Below the pieces are notes generated by a model. The model did not search any database. It had not been told where the DNA came from and saw only the letters and a program-made list of their open reading frames with translations. From positions 110,057 to 174,056 of the forward strand of contig CAWDDB010000013.1 of assembly GCA_963800975.1 (NCBI GenBank): 64,000 bases of DNA, in the 5' to 3' direction. The position numbers were made by a program, and so were the translations under genes. Each line of letters begins with the position of its first letter. Positions within the stretch are counted from its first letter, which is position 1. Of the stretch, positions 6,372 to 38,017 are shown piece after piece. The stretch is from an uncultured Rubrobacteraceae bacterium (lineage in GTDB: Bacteria > Actinomycetota > Rubrobacteria > Rubrobacterales > Rubrobacteraceae).

Positions 6372-6483
6372 GGTTCCTCCTTGCTCCTCTTCCCAGCGAA
6401 GCTTCCCTTACGCCGTATCTTACCCGGATGTGGAGTGGTCGACGCTCTGGGCGAGGCAGGACGCTCTATCCGGGGCGGGGACG

Positions 6484-8043
6484 CTAACTCACGCGAGGCT
6501 CCTCGGTCTGCGCGGACCGGGGCGGGCCTCCGGCCACGAGAAAAGACGCCAGGACGCCGAGCACGGACACGACGAGGCACAGCAGCATCGCGCCGTCGAG
6601 GGCGTACACGAACGCCTCGCTAACCACGCGCTCGACCCTGTCCGCAACCTCGGGGGCCAGTTTGCCAAGCGACCTCTCCGCGGCCTGCGACCCCGAGAGC
6701 AGGCCCCGCACCTCCGCGCGGTCCGAGGAATCGAGGTCGGCGCCGGCAGCCGCTAGCACACTCGTCAGCCTGGCGTTCTCCAGCGCCTTGAACAGCGCGC
6801 CCGTGACCGCCACGCCGAAGACGGCGCCCATCAGCCGGACCATCGACAGAATCCCAGACGCGGCGCCTGCCTTGTTCTCGGGGATGACCGCCATGCCGCC
6901 GGTCGTCGAGACCGTGTAGGCGAACGCCTGGCCGGCGCCCGCGACCGCGAGCGCCGCGATCAGGGTCGCGGAGAGCCCGCTCGATGGCGTGGTAAGGGCC
7001 AGCAGGAGGAAGGCCACGGCGCTCGTCGCCATACCCACTGCCATAGGCAGGCGGAAACCGATGGCTCCCGCCACCGGACCGGCGAGGGCGTCGCAGACGG
7101 TGAGCGTGACCGTGAAGGCCAGCAGGATCAGGCCCGTGTTCAGCGGCGAGTAGCCGAGCACGTTCTGCAGGTAGAGGGGGATGAAGAAAAGGATCGCGCC
7201 GAAGCCGAAGTTCTGCGTGAACGCCACTGCGTTGGCGCCGAGATACCCGCGGTCGGCGAACAGGTTCAGGTCGAGGAGCGGGTTGCGCAGGCGCGGCTCG
7301 ACGACGAAGAACACGGCTAGAAGGACCACGGAAGCCACGAGCGTGCCGATCACGACAGGCGACCCCCAGCCCAGGGTGGGGCCCTGCTGGATCGCGAACA
7401 CCAGCGCGCTCAGCCCAGCCGTGATGGTGACGAGCCCGACCAGGTCGACGCTGCGTCCGGCGGATTCGTCCCTGGACTCGCGCACGGCGACCACGGTCAG
7501 AAAGATCGCGAGCAGGGTTATGGGCACGTTCACGAAAAAGAACGCGCGCCAGGACAGAGACTGGGTGAGGAACCCGCCGACCAGCGGACCGATGGCCAGC
7601 CCCACGGTACCGATGGCCGCCCAGATCCCGATCCCCCTGCTCCTTTGCTGCGGCGGGAAGGCGTTGCTGACGATCGAGAGGGACGCCGCGAAGAACGCCG
7701 AGGCACCCAGCCCCTGCACCACGCGGGCGGCGATAAGCCACGAGCCCGACTGCGCGAGCCCCGAGGCTGTCGACCCGACGACGAAGATGATCGTGCCGAT
7801 AAGCAGTACCCTGCGTCGGCCGAAGATGTCGGCCAGGCGCCCGGCGGCGACCGTCGGGGCGGCGAAGGCCAGCAGGTACGCGTTTATCGTCCACTGCAGG
7901 CCCGTGGTCGAGGTGTCGAGGTCCCGGCCGATGGTCGGCAGCGCCACAACCAGACCGTTGAAGTCGATGGTGATTAGGAGGGTTGTCAGGGCCATCGCCG
8001 CGACGGTCCACCACCTGCGGTTGCGGTCGTTGATCAGCGCCAT
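6484..8043 (-). CDS. MFS transporter, DHA2 (14-TMS, EmrB/QacA-like) family
   Basis: 519 aa and strongly hydrophobic with about 14 predicted helices. MFS motif A-like GRLADIFGRRRVLLIG is present. Confidence 0.85.
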   Translation of the reverse strand: MALINDRNRRWWTVAAMALTTLLITIDFNGLVVALPTIGRDLDTSTTGLQWTINAYLLAFAAPTVAAGRLADIFGRRRVLLIGTIIFVVGSTASGLAQSGSWLIAARVVQGLGASAFFAASLSIVSNAFPPQQRSRGIGIWAAIGTVGLAIGPLVGGFLTQSLSWRAFFFVNVPITLLAIFLTVVAVRESRDESAGRSVDLVGLVTITAGLSALVFAIQQGPTLGWGSPVVIGTLVASVVLLAVFFVVEPRLRNPLLDLNLFADRGYLGANAVAFTQNFGFGAILFFIPLYLQNVLGYSPLNTGLILLAFTVTLTVCDALAGPVAGAIGFRLPMAVGMATSAVAFLLLALTTPSSGLSATLIAALAVAGAGQAFAYTVSTTGGMAVIPENKAGAASGILSMVRLMGAVFGVAVTGALFKALENARLTSVLAAAGADLDSSDRAEVRGLLSGSQAAERSLGKLAPEVADRVERVVSEAFVYALDGAMLLCLVVSVLGVLASFLVAGGPPRSAQTEEPRVS

Positions 8044-8112: not shown

Positions 8113-9348
8113 ATGCGGCGCCTCCCTTGGGCTACACTGATGGCAACCAGTAACGAGATGGGAGAAGAATTGGTGGAACGAGCGGTTGTCTTGGGAGCGG
8201 CGCGGACGCCATTCGGGAAGTTCGGCGGGGCATTGTCTCCCCTGTCTGCGCCCGAGCTGGGCGGGACGGCGATCCGGGAGGCGGTGGACCGGTCCGGCGT
8301 CGAGGACGAGGAGCTGGGGCACTCCATCTTCGGCCTCGTCGTGCAGGCCGGGGTGGGTCAGATCCCCTCCCGCCAGGCCAACTTCCACGCGGGGCTGCCC
8401 TTCTCGCTGACGACCGAGACTATCAACCAGGTTTGCGCCTCTGGCCTGAGGAGCGCGACGCTCGCCGAGACCCTGATCCGCTGCGGCGACTTCGAGGTAG
8501 TCCTCGCCGGCGGGATGGAGAGCATGTCCAATGCCCCTTACCTGCTACCGAAAGCCAGGTGGGGCATGCGCATGGGCGACGCGCCGGCCGTGGACGCTAT
8601 GATGCACGACGGCCTCCTCGATGCCTTCGAGCACGTCAACATGATCCGGTTCGGCACGGACGGGGCAACGAAGTTCGACATCTCGCGCGAAGAGCAGGAC
8701 GAGTGGGCGCTGCGGAGCCAACAGCGAGCCGCCGCCGCGACCGACGAAGGCAGGCTCGCCGAGGAGATCGTGGGCGTCAAGGTGCCGGGGAGAAGAGGAG
8801 AGACGGCCTTCGTGGACGCCGACGAGCCGATCCGGCGCGACACCACCCTGGAGAAGCTGGCCTCGCTCGAGCCACTGGACGAGGGCGGCACCGTGACCGC
8901 AGGAAACGCGCCGGGCGTCACGGACGGGGCAGGGGCTCTGGTGCTCGCGAGCGAGTCCTTCGCGGAGAGGCGGGGCCTAGATCCCCTCGGAACCATCGTC
9001 GCGCACGCCAAGGTGGCAGAGGAGCCGCCGAACCTGCTTACGGTGCCGGGCAACTCGGGCAGGCTCGCCCTGGAGAAAGCCGGGTGGAGCGCCAAAGACC
9101 TCGACCTCGTGGAGATCAACGAGGCGTTCGCTGGGGTCGCGATCCGCTCGACGCGCATCCTCGGGGTGGACCCGGAGATCGTGAACGTCAACGGAGGCGC
9201 TCTGGCGCTCGGGCACCCGATAGGCGCCTCCGGCGCCCGCATTCTCGCGACGCTCATCTACGAGTTGAGGCGCAGGGGCGGCGGCAGGGGGCTCGCGGCG
9301 ATCTGCTCCGGCGGTGGCCAGGGCGACGCGGTGCTGGTGGAGGTATGA
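8113..9348 (+). CDS. Acetyl-CoA C-acetyltransferase (thiolase II)
   Basis: Has the active-site Cys context NQVCASGLRS, plus NGGALALGHPIGASGARI and CSGGGQGDAVLVE. The true start may be ATG 8158 (MGEELVERAVVLGAARTPFGKFGG). Confidence 0.9.
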   Translation: MRRLPWATLMATSNEMGEELVERAVVLGAARTPFGKFGGALSPLSAPELGGTAIREAVDRSGVEDEELGHSIFGLVVQAGVGQIPSRQANFHAGLPFSLTTETINQVCASGLRSATLAETLIRCGDFEVVLAGGMESMSNAPYLLPKARWGMRMGDAPAVDAMMHDGLLDAFEHVNMIRFGTDGATKFDISREEQDEWALRSQQRAAAATDEGRLAEEIVGVKVPGRRGETAFVDADEPIRRDTTLEKLASLEPLDEGGTVTAGNAPGVTDGAGALVLASESFAERRGLDPLGTIVAHAKVAEEPPNLLTVPGNSGRLALEKAGWSAKDLDLVEINEAFAGVAIRSTRILGVDPEIVNVNGGALALGHPIGASGARILATLIYELRRRGGGRGLAAICSGGGQGDAVLVEV

Positions 9349-32546: not shown

Positions 32547-33824
32547 TTGACGCAATCTCACGCAAACCCGGATCCTACCGACGCCCGGTTCGAGGAGCTG
32601 ATCGAAACGGTGCTGCGTCGCGTGGATCGTGAAAACCTGACGCGCCTGGTTCGGGATCTCGTCCGCATCCCGAGCGTTTACCGGCCCGAGGAGCCCGGGG
32701 GCAACGAGGAGCGGGTGGCTGGCTTCGTCGCCGACTACCTGGAACGGGAAGGCTTCGAGGTCGACGTGGAGGAGGTCGCGCCGGGACGCCCGAACGTGTG
32801 GGCGGTGTGGGAGGGGGAGAGGCCGGGCAAGACGTTGCTGTTCGAGGCGCACACCGACGTCGTTACCGAGGGGCGTGCGGGGGACTGGGAGCACCCGCCT
32901 TTCGAGGCCGAGCGGGTCGGGGATCGCATCTACGGCCGGGGGGCTTGCGACACGAAGGGCAACCTGGCGGCGGCGGTCCTGGCCGTCGCGGCGATCAAGG
33001 ACTCAGGGGTGCCGTTTCCCGGCAGGATCGTCCTCTGCCATCCCGTGGACGAGGAGGGGATGATGGTGGGCATCAAGGCCTTTATCGAGGGTGGACACGC
33101 CGAAGGGGTGGACGGCGCCGTTATCTGCGAGCCCGAGGAGAACCAGCTCTGCGTAAAGCAGAAGGGGGCCTTGAGGATCGAGGTCAAGTTCCAGGGAAGG
33201 ATGGCGCACGGGGCGATGCCACTTAGCGGCATCAACCCCGTCACCCACGCGGCGCGCTTCGTGGTCGCCGTCGAGGAGCTGGAGCGGGAGGAGAAGGCGA
33301 GCCACGGCGAGGACCCCTTCCTCGGCTACCCGAGCCTGACGCCGACGATCCTGCTGGGGCCGGATCGCGGGGAGCCGCAGCTGAACGTTATCCCCGCCAG
33401 CGCCTACGTCGCCCTGGATATCCGAACGGTCCCGAGCCAGTCGCACGAGGACCTCGTCCGCAGCCTCCGGGGACGCCTCGAGCGGCTCGAATCCGAGGAC
33501 CCGGACTTCGACGCGGAGCTCGAGGTGATCGAGGAGCGCCCCCCGACCGAGACCCCGATGGACGACCCGCTGGTGCGGTCCATGTCCGCGGCGTACCGGG
33601 GCCTTACCGGGGAGGAGCCCACCTACAACGGTGTTCCGGGCGCGACGGACGGGACGTACCTGAGTTCTTGGGCTGGCGTCCCCATCGTCACCACGGGGGC
33701 CGGGGAGCGCGAGATCCCGCACCACAAGGACGAATGGGTCGGCGTTGAGGAGCTTCTCACCACCTGCAAGCTCTACGCCGCCACCGCCATGTACTTCTGT
33801 TACGGAAAGGATGCAGATGTTTGA
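32547..33824 (+). CDS. M20 family metallohydrolase (ArgE/DapE-type deacylase)
   Basis: EAHTDVV, GRGACDTKG, HPVDEEG, and a dimerisation-domain region with a C-terminal HHKDEWV. Confidence 0.85.
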   Translation: MTQSHANPDPTDARFEELIETVLRRVDRENLTRLVRDLVRIPSVYRPEEPGGNEERVAGFVADYLEREGFEVDVEEVAPGRPNVWAVWEGERPGKTLLFEAHTDVVTEGRAGDWEHPPFEAERVGDRIYGRGACDTKGNLAAAVLAVAAIKDSGVPFPGRIVLCHPVDEEGMMVGIKAFIEGGHAEGVDGAVICEPEENQLCVKQKGALRIEVKFQGRMAHGAMPLSGINPVTHAARFVVAVEELEREEKASHGEDPFLGYPSLTPTILLGPDRGEPQLNVIPASAYVALDIRTVPSQSHEDLVRSLRGRLERLESEDPDFDAELEVIEERPPTETPMDDPLVRSMSAAYRGLTGEEPTYNGVPGATDGTYLSSWAGVPIVTTGAGEREIPHHKDEWVGVEELLTTCKLYAATAMYFCYGKDADV

Positions 33825-34599
33825 CTACAGATCTATGTTCGACCTAACCGACAAGAAGGCGCTCGTCGTTGGGGCCGGGAGCGGAATCGGGGAGGCCGGG
33901 GCGCACGCGCTCGCGGCCTTCGGGGCCGTCGTGTTCTGCGCCGACGCCAACGTCGAGGCCGCCGAAGGCACGGCCGAGGAGGCCAGGTCCCAGGGCTGGA
34001 AGGCCGAGGCCGTCGAGCTCGACATGCTCGACCCGGAGAGCGTCGACGCGGCCTCGGAGCGCGTAGGCGTCCCGGACGTGCTGGTGAGCACGCCGAGCGT
34101 CAACGTCAGGAAGGCGCTGCTGGATTACACCGACGAGGAGTTCGACAAGGTCATAGACCTCAACCTCAAGGGCACCTTCCGGCTCTGCCGGGAGTTCGGG
34201 CGCGGCATGGCCGAGAGGGGCACGGGGAGCATAATCGCGTTCTCGAGCATCCGGGGTCAGGTCGTCGAGCCGGGGCAGAGCGTCTACGCGGCTACGAAGT
34301 CCGGGACGGTGCAGATGCTGCGGGCGCTGGCGGCCGAGCTCGGGCCGCGGGGCGTGCGGGCCAACGCCATCGGCCCTGGCATCGTCGAGACGCCGCTGAC
34401 GGCCCAGATCAAGGACAGCCCCGACTGGTGGAACTCCTACGCGGAAAAGAGCATCCTCGAGCGCTGGGCCAAGCCGCACGAGATGGCAGGCATGATCGTG
34501 TACCTGGCCTCGGACGCGAGCTCCTACGTGACCGGCGCCTTCATGATGGTGGACGGCGGCTGGACCGCCGCCGACGGCCGCTTCAAACCACCGCTATAG
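33811..34599 (+). CDS. SDR family oxidoreductase
   Basis: GAGSGIGEA (TGxxxGxG), NVRK, and YAATKSG (YxxxK). The start is ATG 33811 or 33817 after GGAAAGGA, overlapping the M20 stop. Confidence 0.85.
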   Translation: MQMFDYRSMFDLTDKKALVVGAGSGIGEAGAHALAAFGAVVFCADANVEAAEGTAEEARSQGWKAEAVELDMLDPESVDAASERVGVPDVLVSTPSVNVRKALLDYTDEEFDKVIDLNLKGTFRLCREFGRGMAERGTGSIIAFSSIRGQVVEPGQSVYAATKSGTVQMLRALAAELGPRGVRANAIGPGIVETPLTAQIKDSPDWWNSYAEKSILERWAKPHEMAGMIVYLASDASSYVTGAFMMVDGGWTAADGRFKPPL

Positions 34600-34610
34600 A
34601 GTTAGGAATG

Positions 34611-34798
34611 CGGAATTAGGAATGATGAATTGGAGGTAGGCGGGAGGTTCGCGTCTTTGTCGGAACGGGGTTTTCGGCCTGCGGGTTCGGACCCTCGACC
34701 GATCTCCGATCTTCCGAACTACCCGCGGGCCTTCCCATGGTGACGGTAGGCACTCGAGAAAACAATTCCAAGTTCCTCATTCATCATTCCTAATTCCG
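34611..34798. repeat. Perfect 20-bp AT-rich inverted repeat pair flanking a 148-bp GC-rich spacer
   Basis: CGGAATTAGGAATGATGAAT (34611-34630) is the exact reverse complement of ATTCATCATTCCTAATTCCG (34779-34798). The spacer contains its own interrupted hairpin (34681-34691 / 34713-34726). The element sits between the SDR stop and the ECF promoter. Confidence 0.85.
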
Positions 34799-34802
34799 AG
34801 GT

Positions 34803-34831
34803 TTGACAGTTCGCACATAGCTGCGGATACT
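34803..34831 (+). promoter_or_regulatory. Candidate sigma-70-type promoter of the ECF transporter operon
   Basis: TTGACA (34803-08), a 17-nt spacer, then GATACT (34826-31). GTG 34864 is preceded by GGAGG. Confidence 0.55.
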
Positions 34832-34863
34832 TCACGCGGGCTCGGACAAACGGAGGTGCCAGA

Positions 34864-35463
34864 GTGACGGCTAATTCGGGTAGCGACCGGGGTGGCTCGG
34901 TCTTCAGCTTGAGCGTCCGGCAGATCGTCATAGCCGGGATCCTTGGCGGGATCGCGATCTTCCTCGGCGCCACCCAGCTCGGCTTTATACCCGTGCCGAA
35001 CCTCTCGGGCCGGGCGACCATCATGCACGTGCCCGTGATCCTGGGCGGCGCTCTCGAGGGACCGATGGTCGGCACCATTGTGGGCCTCATCTTCGGCATC
35101 TTCTCCTTTATCCAGGCGGACGTGCCCTTCTTCAGGGACCCGCTGGTCTCCATCCTGCCGCGGTTGCCCATCGGTATCGTGTCCTGGGCCGTCTTCGCCG
35201 CCCTGCGCAGCCGCAGCCTGGACCTCGCGTCGGCAGCGGCCGGCGTGCTCGGCTCCCTCACCAACACCGTCGGGGTGCTCGGGATGGCGGTGCTGCTCGG
35301 GTACCTGCCGCTCGCGGCCACCGTCCCGATCATCCCGCAGGCCATCGCCGAGGCGGTCCTGGCCGCGGTCGTCACGGTCGTCGTGGTGCGGGGCGTGATG
35401 CTATTCCGCAGCGGGCGGACTACCGCGCCCGAGGTGGGGCCCGACGAAGAGCGCCGCTACTAG
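34864..35463 (+). CDS. ECF transporter substrate-specific (S) component, substrate unknown
   Basis: 199 aa and about 6 TM. The pattern ...MHVPVILGGALEGPMVGTIVGLIFGI... is typical of ECF S components. It is immediately followed by ecfA/A'/T. Confidence 0.7.
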   Translation: MTANSGSDRGGSVFSLSVRQIVIAGILGGIAIFLGATQLGFIPVPNLSGRATIMHVPVILGGALEGPMVGTIVGLIFGIFSFIQADVPFFRDPLVSILPRLPIGIVSWAVFAALRSRSLDLASAAAGVLGSLTNTVGVLGMAVLLGYLPLAATVPIIPQAIAEAVLAAVVTVVVVRGVMLFRSGRTTAPEVGPDEERRY

Positions 35464-35481
35464 CGGGGCGACGCAGGCGCG

Positions 35482-36336
35482 ATGATCGAGATCGAGGGGG
35501 TCTCTTTCGCCTACAGGACGGGCGAGGCGGACGCCGTGCCGGCGCTGCGGGATCTGAACCTGCGGATCGATCCCGGCCAGCTCGTGGCGATCATCGGGCA
35601 CAACGGCTCGGGGAAGAGCACGCTGGTCAAGCTGCTGACCGCCGTCCTGTACCCGCTCGAGGGCGCCATCCGGATAGACGGCGTCCCGGTGCGCGTGCAG
35701 GACCAGTGGAAGATCCGCGAGCGGGTGGCGGTCGTCTTCCAGGACCCGGACGACCAGCTGATCATGAACCGGGTCGCCGACGACATCGCCTTCGGCCCCG
35801 AGAACCTCGGGATCGCGCGCGAGGAGATAGGGGAGCGCGTCGCGTTCGCGATCGAGGCGCTCGGCCTGCAGGATATCTCGGGCACCCTGATCGAGGACCT
35901 CTCGCCCGGGCAGAAGCAGAGGGTCGCGATAGCCGGCGCCCTGGCCATGCAGCCCAGGTACCTGATCCTGGACGAGCCGACCTCGCTGCTTCCGGCCCCC
36001 GTGGCGATGCGCCTGATCTCCACGGTCAGGGACCTTAGCCGCCGGGAGGGGATGGGCGTCCTCCACGTTACCCACTCGATGTCCGAGGCGGTCCTCTTCG
36101 ACCGCGTGGTCGTCATGGACGCGGGCCGCAAGGTGATGGACGGCACCCCGGCCGAGGTCTTCCGGCGCGTCGAGGAGCTGCGCGAGATCGGGCTCGACGT
36201 GCCGCTGGCCGCGAGCCTCGCGCACAGGCTGCGCTCGCGCGGGGTGCCGCTCGAAGGAGAGATCCTCGGCCCCGAGGACCTGCGCGCCGCGCTCTCTGGG
36301 CTGGAGGACACGCCCGCGGGAGCGTCGGGACGATGA
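35482..36336 (+). CDS. ecfA1: ECF transporter ATPase component EcfA1
   Basis: Walker A GHNGSGKST, signature LSPGQKQRVAIAG, Walker B LILDEPTS. Confidence 0.85.
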   Translation: MIEIEGVSFAYRTGEADAVPALRDLNLRIDPGQLVAIIGHNGSGKSTLVKLLTAVLYPLEGAIRIDGVPVRVQDQWKIRERVAVVFQDPDDQLIMNRVADDIAFGPENLGIAREEIGERVAFAIEALGLQDISGTLIEDLSPGQKQRVAIAGALAMQPRYLILDEPTSLLPAPVAMRLISTVRDLSRREGMGVLHVTHSMSEAVLFDRVVVMDAGRKVMDGTPAEVFRRVEELREIGLDVPLAASLAHRLRSRGVPLEGEILGPEDLRAALSGLEDTPAGASGR

Positions 36337-37205
36337 ACGGCGAGGAGCCGCCGATCCTCGAGCTGCGGGACTTCCGATACACCTACCTGGAAGGCACACC
36401 GAAGGCGAACGAGGCGATACGCGACGTGTCGTTCTCCATAAGCCGCGGCGAGCGCGTCGCGATAGTCGGGCCGACGCACTCGGGCAAATCCACCGTCGTG
36501 GACTCCTTCGCCCACCTGCTGCGCCTCAAGGGGGAACAGGTCTTCTACGAGGGAGAGGACATCGCGGCCCCCGGCTACGACCGCTCGGCGCTGCGCCGGA
36601 AGGTCGGCATCGTCTTCCAGCGTCCGGACTCGCAGCTAATAGAGGACGTTGTCGGCGCGGACGTGGCCTTCGGCCCGACCGCCGCTGGGATCACCGCGGA
36701 GGAGACGCGCGAGCGCGTCGAGGAGAGCCTCGACGCCCTGGGATTGCCTTACCAGGACTTCCGGCTCAGGTACGTGCACGCGCTCTCGGGCGGACAGCGC
36801 CGCAGGGTGGCGATAGCCGGCGTCATCGCGATGCGCACGCCCGTCCTGGTTCTCGACGAGCCGATGGCTGGCCTCGACCCGAGGGGCCGGCGCGAGCTGC
36901 TCGGGCTGCTGCGCCGGCTCGCCGACGACCGCGACCTCACCCTGGTCGTCTGCTCGGCCTCGCTCGGCGACGCGAGTCTCCTGTGCGACCGGGTCATCGT
37001 CCTGAGCGACGGTCGCGTCGCGATGGACGGGCCATTGCGCGAGGTCCTGCGCGACGCCGACGCGCTCGCGGCGCTCGACGTCACGCTCCCCGAACCCGTC
37101 GAAGGCGCGAGGGAGCTCAGGAAGCTGTTCCCGGATCTCCCGGCGGACATCCTGACGGAGGACGAGCTGGAGGCCGCGCTGCTCGAGCGGCTGGGCGTGG
37201 CGTAG
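36333..37205 (+). CDS. ecfA2: ECF transporter ATPase component EcfA2
   Basis: Walker [10 protein letters not shown], signature [13 protein letters not shown], Walker [12 protein letters not shown]. There is a 4-nt overlap with ecfA1. Confidence 0.85.
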
Positions 37206-38017
37206 TGCTCGAGCTGCAGCGAAACGTCGTCTTCGGGCAGTTCGTGGACACGGGGTCCGTCATCCACCGCATGGACCCCCGCATAAAGCTTGCGGCGACC
37301 TTCGCGATGCTCGTCGCCTCCTTCGTCATAGACGACTTCCTCGGCTTCGCGGTGGCGCTCGCGCTGCTGGTCGTGATCCAGCTAGTCTCCCGCATTCCCC
37401 TCGGCTACCTCCTGCGGGGCTCCGGCTTCTTTATAGGGTTCCTGCTGTTCATCCTTGTCTTCCAGATTCTCTTCTACCCCGGGGAGGTGGCCGAGGGAGA
37501 TTACCTGTGGCGCTGGGGCATACTCTCGATCTCGACCGAGGGTCTCAGGGCGGCCGGGATCCTGGGTCTGCGCGTGATCTTCCTTTACTACGTCACCACG
37601 ATGCTGATGCTGGCGACCTCCCTCGTCGACCTGACCAACGGCCTGGAGCTGATCTTCGGCCCGCTGCAGAGGCTGAGGGTCCCGGTCAACGAGCTGGTCC
37701 TCGTCTTCGTCATCGCCATCAAGTTCGTCCCCATCTTTATAGAGGAGGTCGAGCGCCTGGCCCGCGCCCAGACCGCCCGCGGCGTCCCCTTCGACGAGGG
37801 CGGCGCCGTAAAACGCGCCCGCCGCCTGGGAAGGCTCCTGGTCCCGATCTTTATCGGTGGCTTCGCCCGCGCCGACGTCCTCACGACCGCCATGAACACC
37901 CGCTGCTACCGCGGCGGCCGCCGCCGAACCAAGTTCCGCCAGCTCAGCACCAGGCCCTCAGACTGGCTCATCCTCGCCCTGGTCGTCGTCTGGATGGTCG
38001 CCGCCTGGCTCGTTTAG
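37205..38017 (+). CDS. ecfT: ECF transporter transmembrane (T) component EcfT
   Basis: GTG 37205 overlaps the ecfA2 stop. Multi-TM, with the conserved coupling motif ARAQTARGV. Confidence 0.85.

Follow-up and report, generated by a model that had tools for sequence, protein, structure and literature searches.

The gap between an SDR gene and an ECF transporter operon in an uncultured Rubrobacteraceae bacterium holds two AT-rich 20-nt sequences that are exact reverse complements of each other, the second of them just upstream of a good promoter. Is this palindrome a control device of the operon, or has it come from elsewhere? The present study suggests the latter. Specifically, the interval is probably a gene-less copy of a dispersed palindromic element that inserted at the stop codon of the SDR gene, belongs to a class of heptamer-array hairpins tied to PF05635 genes, and is a miniature of cassettes that carry such a gene. 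We assign this reading a probability of about 0.72. The DNA analyzed (the window) is a stretch of 64,000 nucleotides, C13:110057-174056, of a 5.21-Mb assembly with 66% GC (genome G000); positions without a contig are those of the window.

Results

A hairpin built of two five-unit heptamer arrays

The interval consists of two convergent arrays, each of five heptamer units, on either side of a GC-rich core (Table 1). The first-pass annotation had described a perfect 20-bp inverted repeat that encloses 148 nt, and this repeat is present, its two sites lying 168 bp apart. The near-duplicate TAGGAATG that it saw ahead of the left arm is likewise real, and turns out to be part of the five-unit left array. 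Across the window, with up to three mismatches allowed, CGGAATTAGGAATGATGAAT matches only the two arm sites, against 0 matches in 100 shuffles. When the 205-nt interval was folded as RNA, the predicted minimum free energy was -86.2 kcal/mol (z = -3.9) with the 20-nt arms paired; the inner hairpin of the core that had been noted earlier exists, and in the minimum-free-energy fold it is formed by GCGGGTTCGGA...TCCGAACTACCCGC (the TCCGAAC..CCCGC side).

The perfect 20-mer pairs left units 3-5 with right units 1-3, plus two flanking bases, and GAATTAG-GAATGAT is a frequent outer-unit combination in the GAAT-array family to which the element belongs. At the variable positions of 18 array pairs from this family, identity is 0.56 between arms of the same element and 0.59 between arms of different elements (permutation p = 0.87). 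This offset register of common unit variants, together with the lack of extra complementarity within elements, shows that the perfection of the 20-mer is a coincidence of two low-complexity arrays and carries no special meaning. That complementarity is no higher within elements also speaks against the view that a perfect RNA stem is under strong selection, and covariation sought at the variable heptamer positions across the 18 pairs lent no support to a selected stem.

An intrinsic terminator was considered and rejected: in place of a GC-rich hairpin and a U tract there are AT-rich arms and then CGAGGTTTGACA, and the sole terminator-like match at the locus is a 5-bp stem within the core.

The G of the SDR stop codon (TAG, 34597-34599) doubles as the first base of the element, and the SDR protein, which ends in ...DGRFKPPL*, has a C-terminus of the same length as in relatives. 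Just downstream of the element, between the SDR gene and the ECF S-A-A'-T genes, the promoter that had been proposed was confirmed; its TTGACA-17-GATACT is the single promoter-like site in 34300-35000. The leader that follows is too short for a riboswitch, and the substrate of the S component is therefore not signalled by a known RNA element.

Table 1. Features of the SDR-ECF interval and the flanking genes, in window coordinates
Feature	Position	Strand	Description
SDR gene	33745..34599	+	Pfam adh_short_C2, E = 2.4e-58
Whole heptamer-array palindromic element	34599..34796		~198 nt, with ends placed to within about 2 nt; supported by empty sites in relatives, the family census and sibling copies
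Left arm	34599..34633	+	Five heptamer units: GAGTTAG GAATGCG GAATTAG GAATGAT GAATTGG
Left half of perfect 20-nt inverted repeat	34611..34630	+	CGGAATTAGGAATGATGAAT; end of unit 2 to GAAT of unit 5
GC-rich core	34634..34761		Internal hairpin at about 34676-34731; two other long copies have homologous cores
Right arm	34762..34796	-	Five heptamer units: GAATTAG GAATGAT GAATGAG GAACTTG GAATTGT
Right half of perfect 20-nt inverted repeat	34779..34798	-	Right units 1-3 plus 2 flanking bases
ECF promoter	34803..34831	+	Sigma-70-type, TTGACA-17-GATACT; outside the element; boxes conserved in relatives without the element
ECF leader	34832-34863		From -10 box to GTG start, only about 30 nt; conserved with closest relatives
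ECF operon	34864..38017	+	Pfam ECF_trnsprt, ABC_tran x2, CbiQ
ECF S component	34864-35463	+	
ECF A component	35482-36336	+	
ECF A' component	36333-37205	+	
ECF T component	37202-38017	+	

A dispersed family with a fixed unit number

The element is one of a repeat family in this genome. A blast search of the unit for copy number, as the first-pass annotation had advised, returned 11 further partial matches in the genome. A census of GAAT cores at period 7 counted 76 arrays, against 2 for a reversed-core control word, and the number of units is exactly five in 55 of the 76. The consensus of 48 aligned termini reads GAATTAG GAATKNG GAATKNG GAATKNG GAATTGr and is followed on the inner side by a semi-conserved motif, rGGGTTCGGGkGCC. 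Because the first and last units are distinct, what recurs is a fixed terminal repeat of ~35 nt with inner sequence attached, not a free-running microsatellite. The arrays form 26 convergent pairs, with spans of 34-233 nt, alongside 24 solo arrays, and the hairpins into which family members are predicted to fold range from -9 to -86 kcal/mol. The GAATKNG unit has no G3 tract and does not qualify as a G-quadruplex motif.

The core of the window copy can be aligned with C5:234367-234527 and C5:324929-325161 (81% identity in the blast match to C5:234447-234520). Since the cores of these three long copies are homologous, it was whole elements that were copied, not arrays alone.

Some further loci of the genome deserve mention. 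Two short palindromic arrays of GAATTyG units lie about 420 bp apart at C20:66891-66945 and C20:67361-67401, the latter exactly at the junction where an ImuB-like gene stops and a DnaE2-like (PHP-domain) gene begins, and this position implies that elements can occur inside operons. The near-identical loci C7:19378-19694 and C13:7582-7891 each hold a 55-nt mini-palindrome in common flanks, which points to a duplicated segment or to a collapsed or duplicated contig end. Runs of a single base (T, G or A), up to several hundred bases long, occur within contigs at C8:7703-7821, C8:129017-129133, C14:610091-610542 and C21:392288-393183 and are almost certainly artefacts of assembly or scaffolding.

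The orthologous site is empty in relatives

The closest ortholog of the S component is 96% identical, and comparison of the SDR-ECF gap among relatives, also advised by the first-pass annotation, was informative. Seven relatives (L009-L015) have no element here: a spacer of 3-4 nt separates their SDR stop codon from the same TTGACA, and beyond the -35 box the matching -10 box, Shine-Dalgarno sequence and start codon are kept. The window element is wedged between TA(G) and (A)GGTTTGACA, and at the cleanly empty orthologous site there is no seed repeat. The seven empty sites indicate that the ~198-nt unit is a lineage-specific insertion, as judged from presence and absence between species, and that the ECF promoter is ancestral rather than supplied by the element. 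Relatives keep the promoter without the element, which excludes that it acts as an operator or leader conserved along with the operon. A second empty site was found in a relative at the position corresponding to C8:460298, where two stop codons stand 8 nt apart and the element is missing.

At the sites C6:47690, C9:117745 and C21:170627 of this genome, relatives carry elements of the same design in another flavor, that is, with another heptamer. The loci concerned are L089:1745-1895, L091:1750-1900, L284 (G044:C286, about 8948-9293) and L298 (G044:C98, about 6375-6517), and the flavors are TCAGCnn, CTTGTCAGCACGC and GGCAyCA. Either such sites are reused as hot spots or resident hairpins are replaced by hairpins of another flavor.

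Array ends abut stop codons

The arrays sit at the ends of genes. Of 62 array ends, 27 fall between -12 and +8 nt relative to the stop codon of an inward-reading gene, compared with 1.8% of random intergenic positions (p = 5e-29), and nearly every array pair adjoins one stop codon or more. Gaps between convergent genes, which make up 16% of gene gaps genome-wide, contain 11 of the 26 pairs, and divergent gaps contain only 2. Six loci allowed comparison with relatives, and at five of them the element starts directly after the native stop codon; in one case it truncates the ORF. Stop codons in all frames of the arrays contribute to the adjacency, but they cannot account for elements that abut native stops exactly.

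Flavors among relatives

The GGAAT flavor is specific to this genome among its relatives. With up to one mismatch, GGAATNNGGAATNNGGAAT has 65 matches in this genome, whereas 40 relatives have 0-3 apiece, and of 104 Rubrobacteria genomes just 3 contain exact matches to the GGAAT pattern (18 in G000 and 1 each in two others). GGAAT-type palindromes also occur in unidentified high-GC metagenome contigs, where convergent pairs were present at 30 of 80 fetched loci, and one metagenome locus (L201) is closely similar to the family described here. TCAGCnn arrays are plentiful in many Rubrobacteraceae, with up to about 200 matches per genome, whereas other families of the phylum have essentially none; 25 of them occur in G000, where they start at TAG as the GGAAT arrays do. 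This distribution suggests that the GGAAT family is a genome-specific flavor of a wider class of inverted heptamer arrays, which in Rubrobacteraceae mostly uses TCAGCnn and is found in other phyla as well, such as GGGAATC in Xanthomonas.

A third flavor in G000 consists of GGGAGTn / nACTCCC hairpins (C12:74787-74860, C8:1101100-1101192 and C14:430037-430081). No PF05635 gene matching this flavor was found in G000; in a relative (L124, G021) a PF05635 gene is accompanied by ACTCCCn arrays. A few GAACCnn hairpins are also present in G000.

Heptamer arrays surround PF05635 genes

The only gene found inside a GGAAT pair, at C6:149732-150204 (L135:1370-1850), is a PF05635 gene. PF05635 is the 23S-rRNA-IVS/Avd-like (S23p) family of four-helix bundles and has no known catalytic activity. 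The gene is broken, its N-terminal helix (TFEFARRVVGLCRVLEQAPG) standing in another frame than the remainder, and the break reflects either a frameshifted pseudogene or a sequencing error. The second PF05635 gene of the genome, at C13:60294-60608, is intact and lies between inverted CTTGTCAGCACGC and GCGTGCTGACAAG arrays with a TCAGC core. The two PF05635 genes thus match, in their arrays, the two gene-less families of the genome, GGAAT and TCAGC. When the mini-elements were compared with the gene-bearing GGAAT copy, matches were confined to the arrays and none was found in the interior.

Around the intact gene, in a locus outside the window (L123:1300-2060, C13:60094-60853), three CTTGTCAGCACGC-type motifs stand upstream and four GCGTGCTGACAAG motifs downstream. 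These are separated by small GC hairpins, and the arms are not strictly of period 7, the TCAGC core being common to them.

PF05635 loci were scored, without regard to orientation, for a period-7 array within 200 nt of the PF05635 match. Among the loci of the Rubrobacteraceae batch such an array was present at 7 of 18 (4 of 18 on both flanks; Fisher p = 3e-9 for either flank), and among loci from across the Actinomycetota, with GC contents of 0.34-0.68, at 19 of 24 (12 of 24 on both flanks; p = 6e-28 for either flank). For control genes, taken from G000 only, the figures were 6 of 695 and, for both flanks, 0 of 695. The heptamer differs from locus to locus around PF05635 genes, the same architecture recurring with many unrelated heptamers. 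These comparisons show that the class of heptamer-array hairpins is physically tied to PF05635 genes, which typically sit within such arrays.

Small actinobacterial genomes (1.4-2.2 Mb) of several families (L259-L283) hold 5-10 copies of PF05635, several of them truncated or interrupted by internal stops; such multiplication and decay is the behavior of a selfish gene family. In two genera (L121, G014:C72; L128, G004:C41) a PF05635 cassette occupies the same junction, after an OpcA-like stop and ahead of zwf, with different arm heptamers, CATCAGG and TCAGCnn. The solved structure closest to the PF05635 protein is XCC0516 of Xanthomonas campestris (2GSC, five chains). A supplementary table of Rehm et al. 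2015 (PMC4692102) lists a four-unit GGGAATC repeat 6 nt from bccP that overlaps the annotated start of XCC0516. Our literature search found no published link between gene-less heptamer arrays and PF05635.

Discussion

Alternative explanations

The competitor that survives best, although we consider it improbable, is a classical MITE that a DDE transposase, such as an IS630/Tc1-like enzyme with a TA target, mobilizes in trans; the heptamer period would then be a peculiarity of the terminal inverted repeats. Much of the MITE-like insertion suggested by the first-pass annotation holds: the element has inverted ends, measures under about 300 bp, is multi-copy (76 arrays, 26 pairs), has interiors homologous to those of its siblings and is absent from the site in seven relatives. 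What failed are the marks of a classical MITE. A target-site duplication, which the annotation had proposed to look for, was sought in the flanks of the 48 termini, and no uniform one was found. The base at -1 is A in 26 of the 48, and a few copies, such as C2:100351-100433, are flanked by TA...TA, as a TA target would predict, but TA precedes only 8 of the 48. Array pairs separated by as much as 8 kb contain no transposase between them, the distant arrays enclosing ordinary metabolic genes, and neither a transposase-bearing parent with these ends nor any other mobility enzyme for the family was identified in the genome. The sole gene in a GGAAT pair is instead a PF05635 gene, and the same architecture recurs around such genes with many unrelated heptamers. 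A literature search for Rubrobacter MITEs found none.

Growth of the arrays in situ by polymerase slippage, so that they merely resemble a dispersed element, is very unlikely and already largely refuted. Many bacteria do have an excess of heptamer SSRs, for which slippage is a proposed cause (PMC4692102, PMC4679880), and the heptamer copy number of the Coxiella IVS differs between strains (PMC4990558). Here, however, the unit number is fixed at five in most arrays, the first and last units are specific to their positions, a conserved inner sequence that is not repetitive accompanies the arrays, cores are homologous between copies, and the site in relatives is cleanly empty without a seed from which slippage could have started.

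The first-pass annotation also offered a pair of operator sites looping or repressing the ECF promoter, and two identical 20-bp sites immediately upstream of a good promoter do invite that view. It is refuted for practical purposes: relatives retain the same promoter without the sites, about 50 loci carry the motif, for the most part where unrelated genes have their 3' ends, only two pairs stand in divergent promoter gaps, and the identity of the two sites is the offset-register coincidence described above. Its third proposal, a riboswitch or other structured cis-regulatory RNA for the transporter, and the related possibility of a REP/REPIN mobilized by a RAYT, can draw on the strong predicted structure and on the palindromic, extragenic character shared with REPs, but are scarcely credible, given that an Rfam scan of 34200-35200 at E <= 10 gave only a chance snoRNA match in the S-component gene, that the element lies upstream of the -35 box rather than in the leader and is missing from the seven relatives, and that a search of the genome for the Y1/RAYT transposase family PF01797, which detected the family in 6 control genomes, gave 0 matches.

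A model for spread and effect

If the interval is indeed a gene-less copy of a dispersed heptamer-array element, the events at this locus may be pictured as follows. The copy landed exactly between the stop codon of the SDR gene and the pre-existing -35 box of the ECF operon. Gene-less copies of this kind would be miniature derivatives of gene-bearing cassettes, related to them as MITEs are to insertion sequences, and their spread would depend on recognition of the heptamer array by a cognate four-helix-bundle pentamer rather than on a classical transposase. Transcribed as part of the SDR 3' UTR, the element is predicted to fold into a long imperfect hairpin (-86 kcal/mol), which, by analogy with the arms of 23S intervening sequences, might serve as an RNase III site or as a barrier at the 3' end. 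Such a hairpin would keep the SDR transcript apart from the ECF operon and leave the ECF promoter unaltered. Counting against this model, searches turned up no mobility enzyme and no uniform target-site duplication, the mini-elements have only their arrays in common with the gene-bearing copy, and the GGAAT flavor has no evident intact cognate protein, its gene-bearing copy being frameshifted.

A bolder version can be entertained only tentatively, and we think it rather doubtful as a whole. PF05635 pentamers would be sequence-specific partners of the arrays, five subunits matching five units, and the elements would propagate themselves, homing to stop-codon junctions and to hairpins of other flavors, which they would overwrite. 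In G000, a recent switch of flavor from TCAGCnn to GGAATKN would then have preceded a burst of about 50 gene-less copies, after which the master gene decayed.

Heptamer repeats, such as the cyanobacterial STRR and the Xanthomonas GGGAATC repeats, and S23p/IVS proteins have each been without explanation for about 30 years. The genome studied here is a compact test bed for both: two flavors each have a matching four-helix-bundle gene, one of them has undergone a genome-specific gene-less burst, orthologous sites are cleanly filled or empty, and at some sites relatives carry a different flavor. Questions that become testable include binding of the arrays by the protein, movement of the hairpins, and processing or termination of transcripts at gene ends. 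Annotators of such genomes are also warned that a striking, perfect palindrome near a promoter consists of element arms and is not an operator.

Relation to known repeats and intervening sequences

The nearest published counterparts are the heptamer repeats of Xanthomonas (GGGAATC) and Nostoc (GGGGAYT), with 70-75 stem-loop-capable convergent pairs per genome (PMC4692102). According to Rehm et al. 2015 (PMC4692102), these repeats lie between genes and near the ORF that precedes them, often pair convergently, favor a certain number of units and are for the most part transcribed, their function being unexplained; they are treated there as SSRs or G4 motifs, and no protein family is linked to them. 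The GAAT arrays share with the Xanthomonas repeats the tandem 7-nt units, a similar unit (GGGAATC vs GGAATKN), the convergent pairing, the preferred unit number and an intergenic position nearer the end of the preceding ORF. They differ in belonging to the Actinomycetota, in having AT-rich units in a 66% GC genome, in lacking a G-quadruplex and in a preferred number of five units rather than four. Moreover, they clearly serve as arms of discrete elements whose inner sequence is conserved and for which empty sites give direct evidence.

Likeness to MITEs and to REP/REPIN sequences lies in the small, noncoding, palindromic, multi-copy and intergenic nature of the element, in its presence or absence between relatives and in the likely relation of parent to miniature. 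In contrast to those classes, no consistent target-site duplication, cognate DDE transposase or RAYT accompanies it, and its arms are periodic heptamer arrays instead of unique terminal inverted repeats or GTAG-type REP hairpins. The cyanobacterial STRR and the TAACTGA repeats of Beggiatoaceae (PMC4679880) resemble the present arrays in that several heptamer flavors coexist in a lineage, lie between genes and end ORFs with stop codons in all frames. They differ in being mostly direct arrays upstream of start codons, inverted pairing being rare (one case, in a Beggiatoa genome; PMC4679880).

A further close parallel is provided by the ORF-bearing 23S intervening sequences of Coxiella burnetii and Leptospira (PMC4990558), in which terminal inverted repeats close a hairpin and tandem heptamers stand beside a PF05635 (S23p) ORF. 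The IVS of Coxiella burnetii combines an S23p ORF with a terminal stem of 28 bp and tandem GACAGAT heptamers, and is excised by RNase III, with a cut at the first repeat (Warrier et al. 2016, PMC4990558). The same authors cite older proposals that the IVS is a transposon remnant or a mobile element, as well as the pentameric toroid of the Xanthomonas S23p. Such sequences are seen as selfish and possibly once mobile, with arms that are RNase III substrates. The window element has the long closing stem of terminal inverted repeats and the tandem heptamers, whereas it has no PF05635 ORF inside and lies at a stop codon between protein-coding genes, in the SDR-ECF gap, rather than in a 23S rRNA helix. 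Its sibling at C6:149732-150204, however, has exactly the gene-in-arms layout of an IVS. What is new, then, is that inverted heptamer-repeat hairpins, a known but unexplained kind of repeat, occur in a new phylum with a new unit, that the evidence for their insertion is unusually clean, and that a four-helix-bundle gene of matching flavor resides in the same genome.
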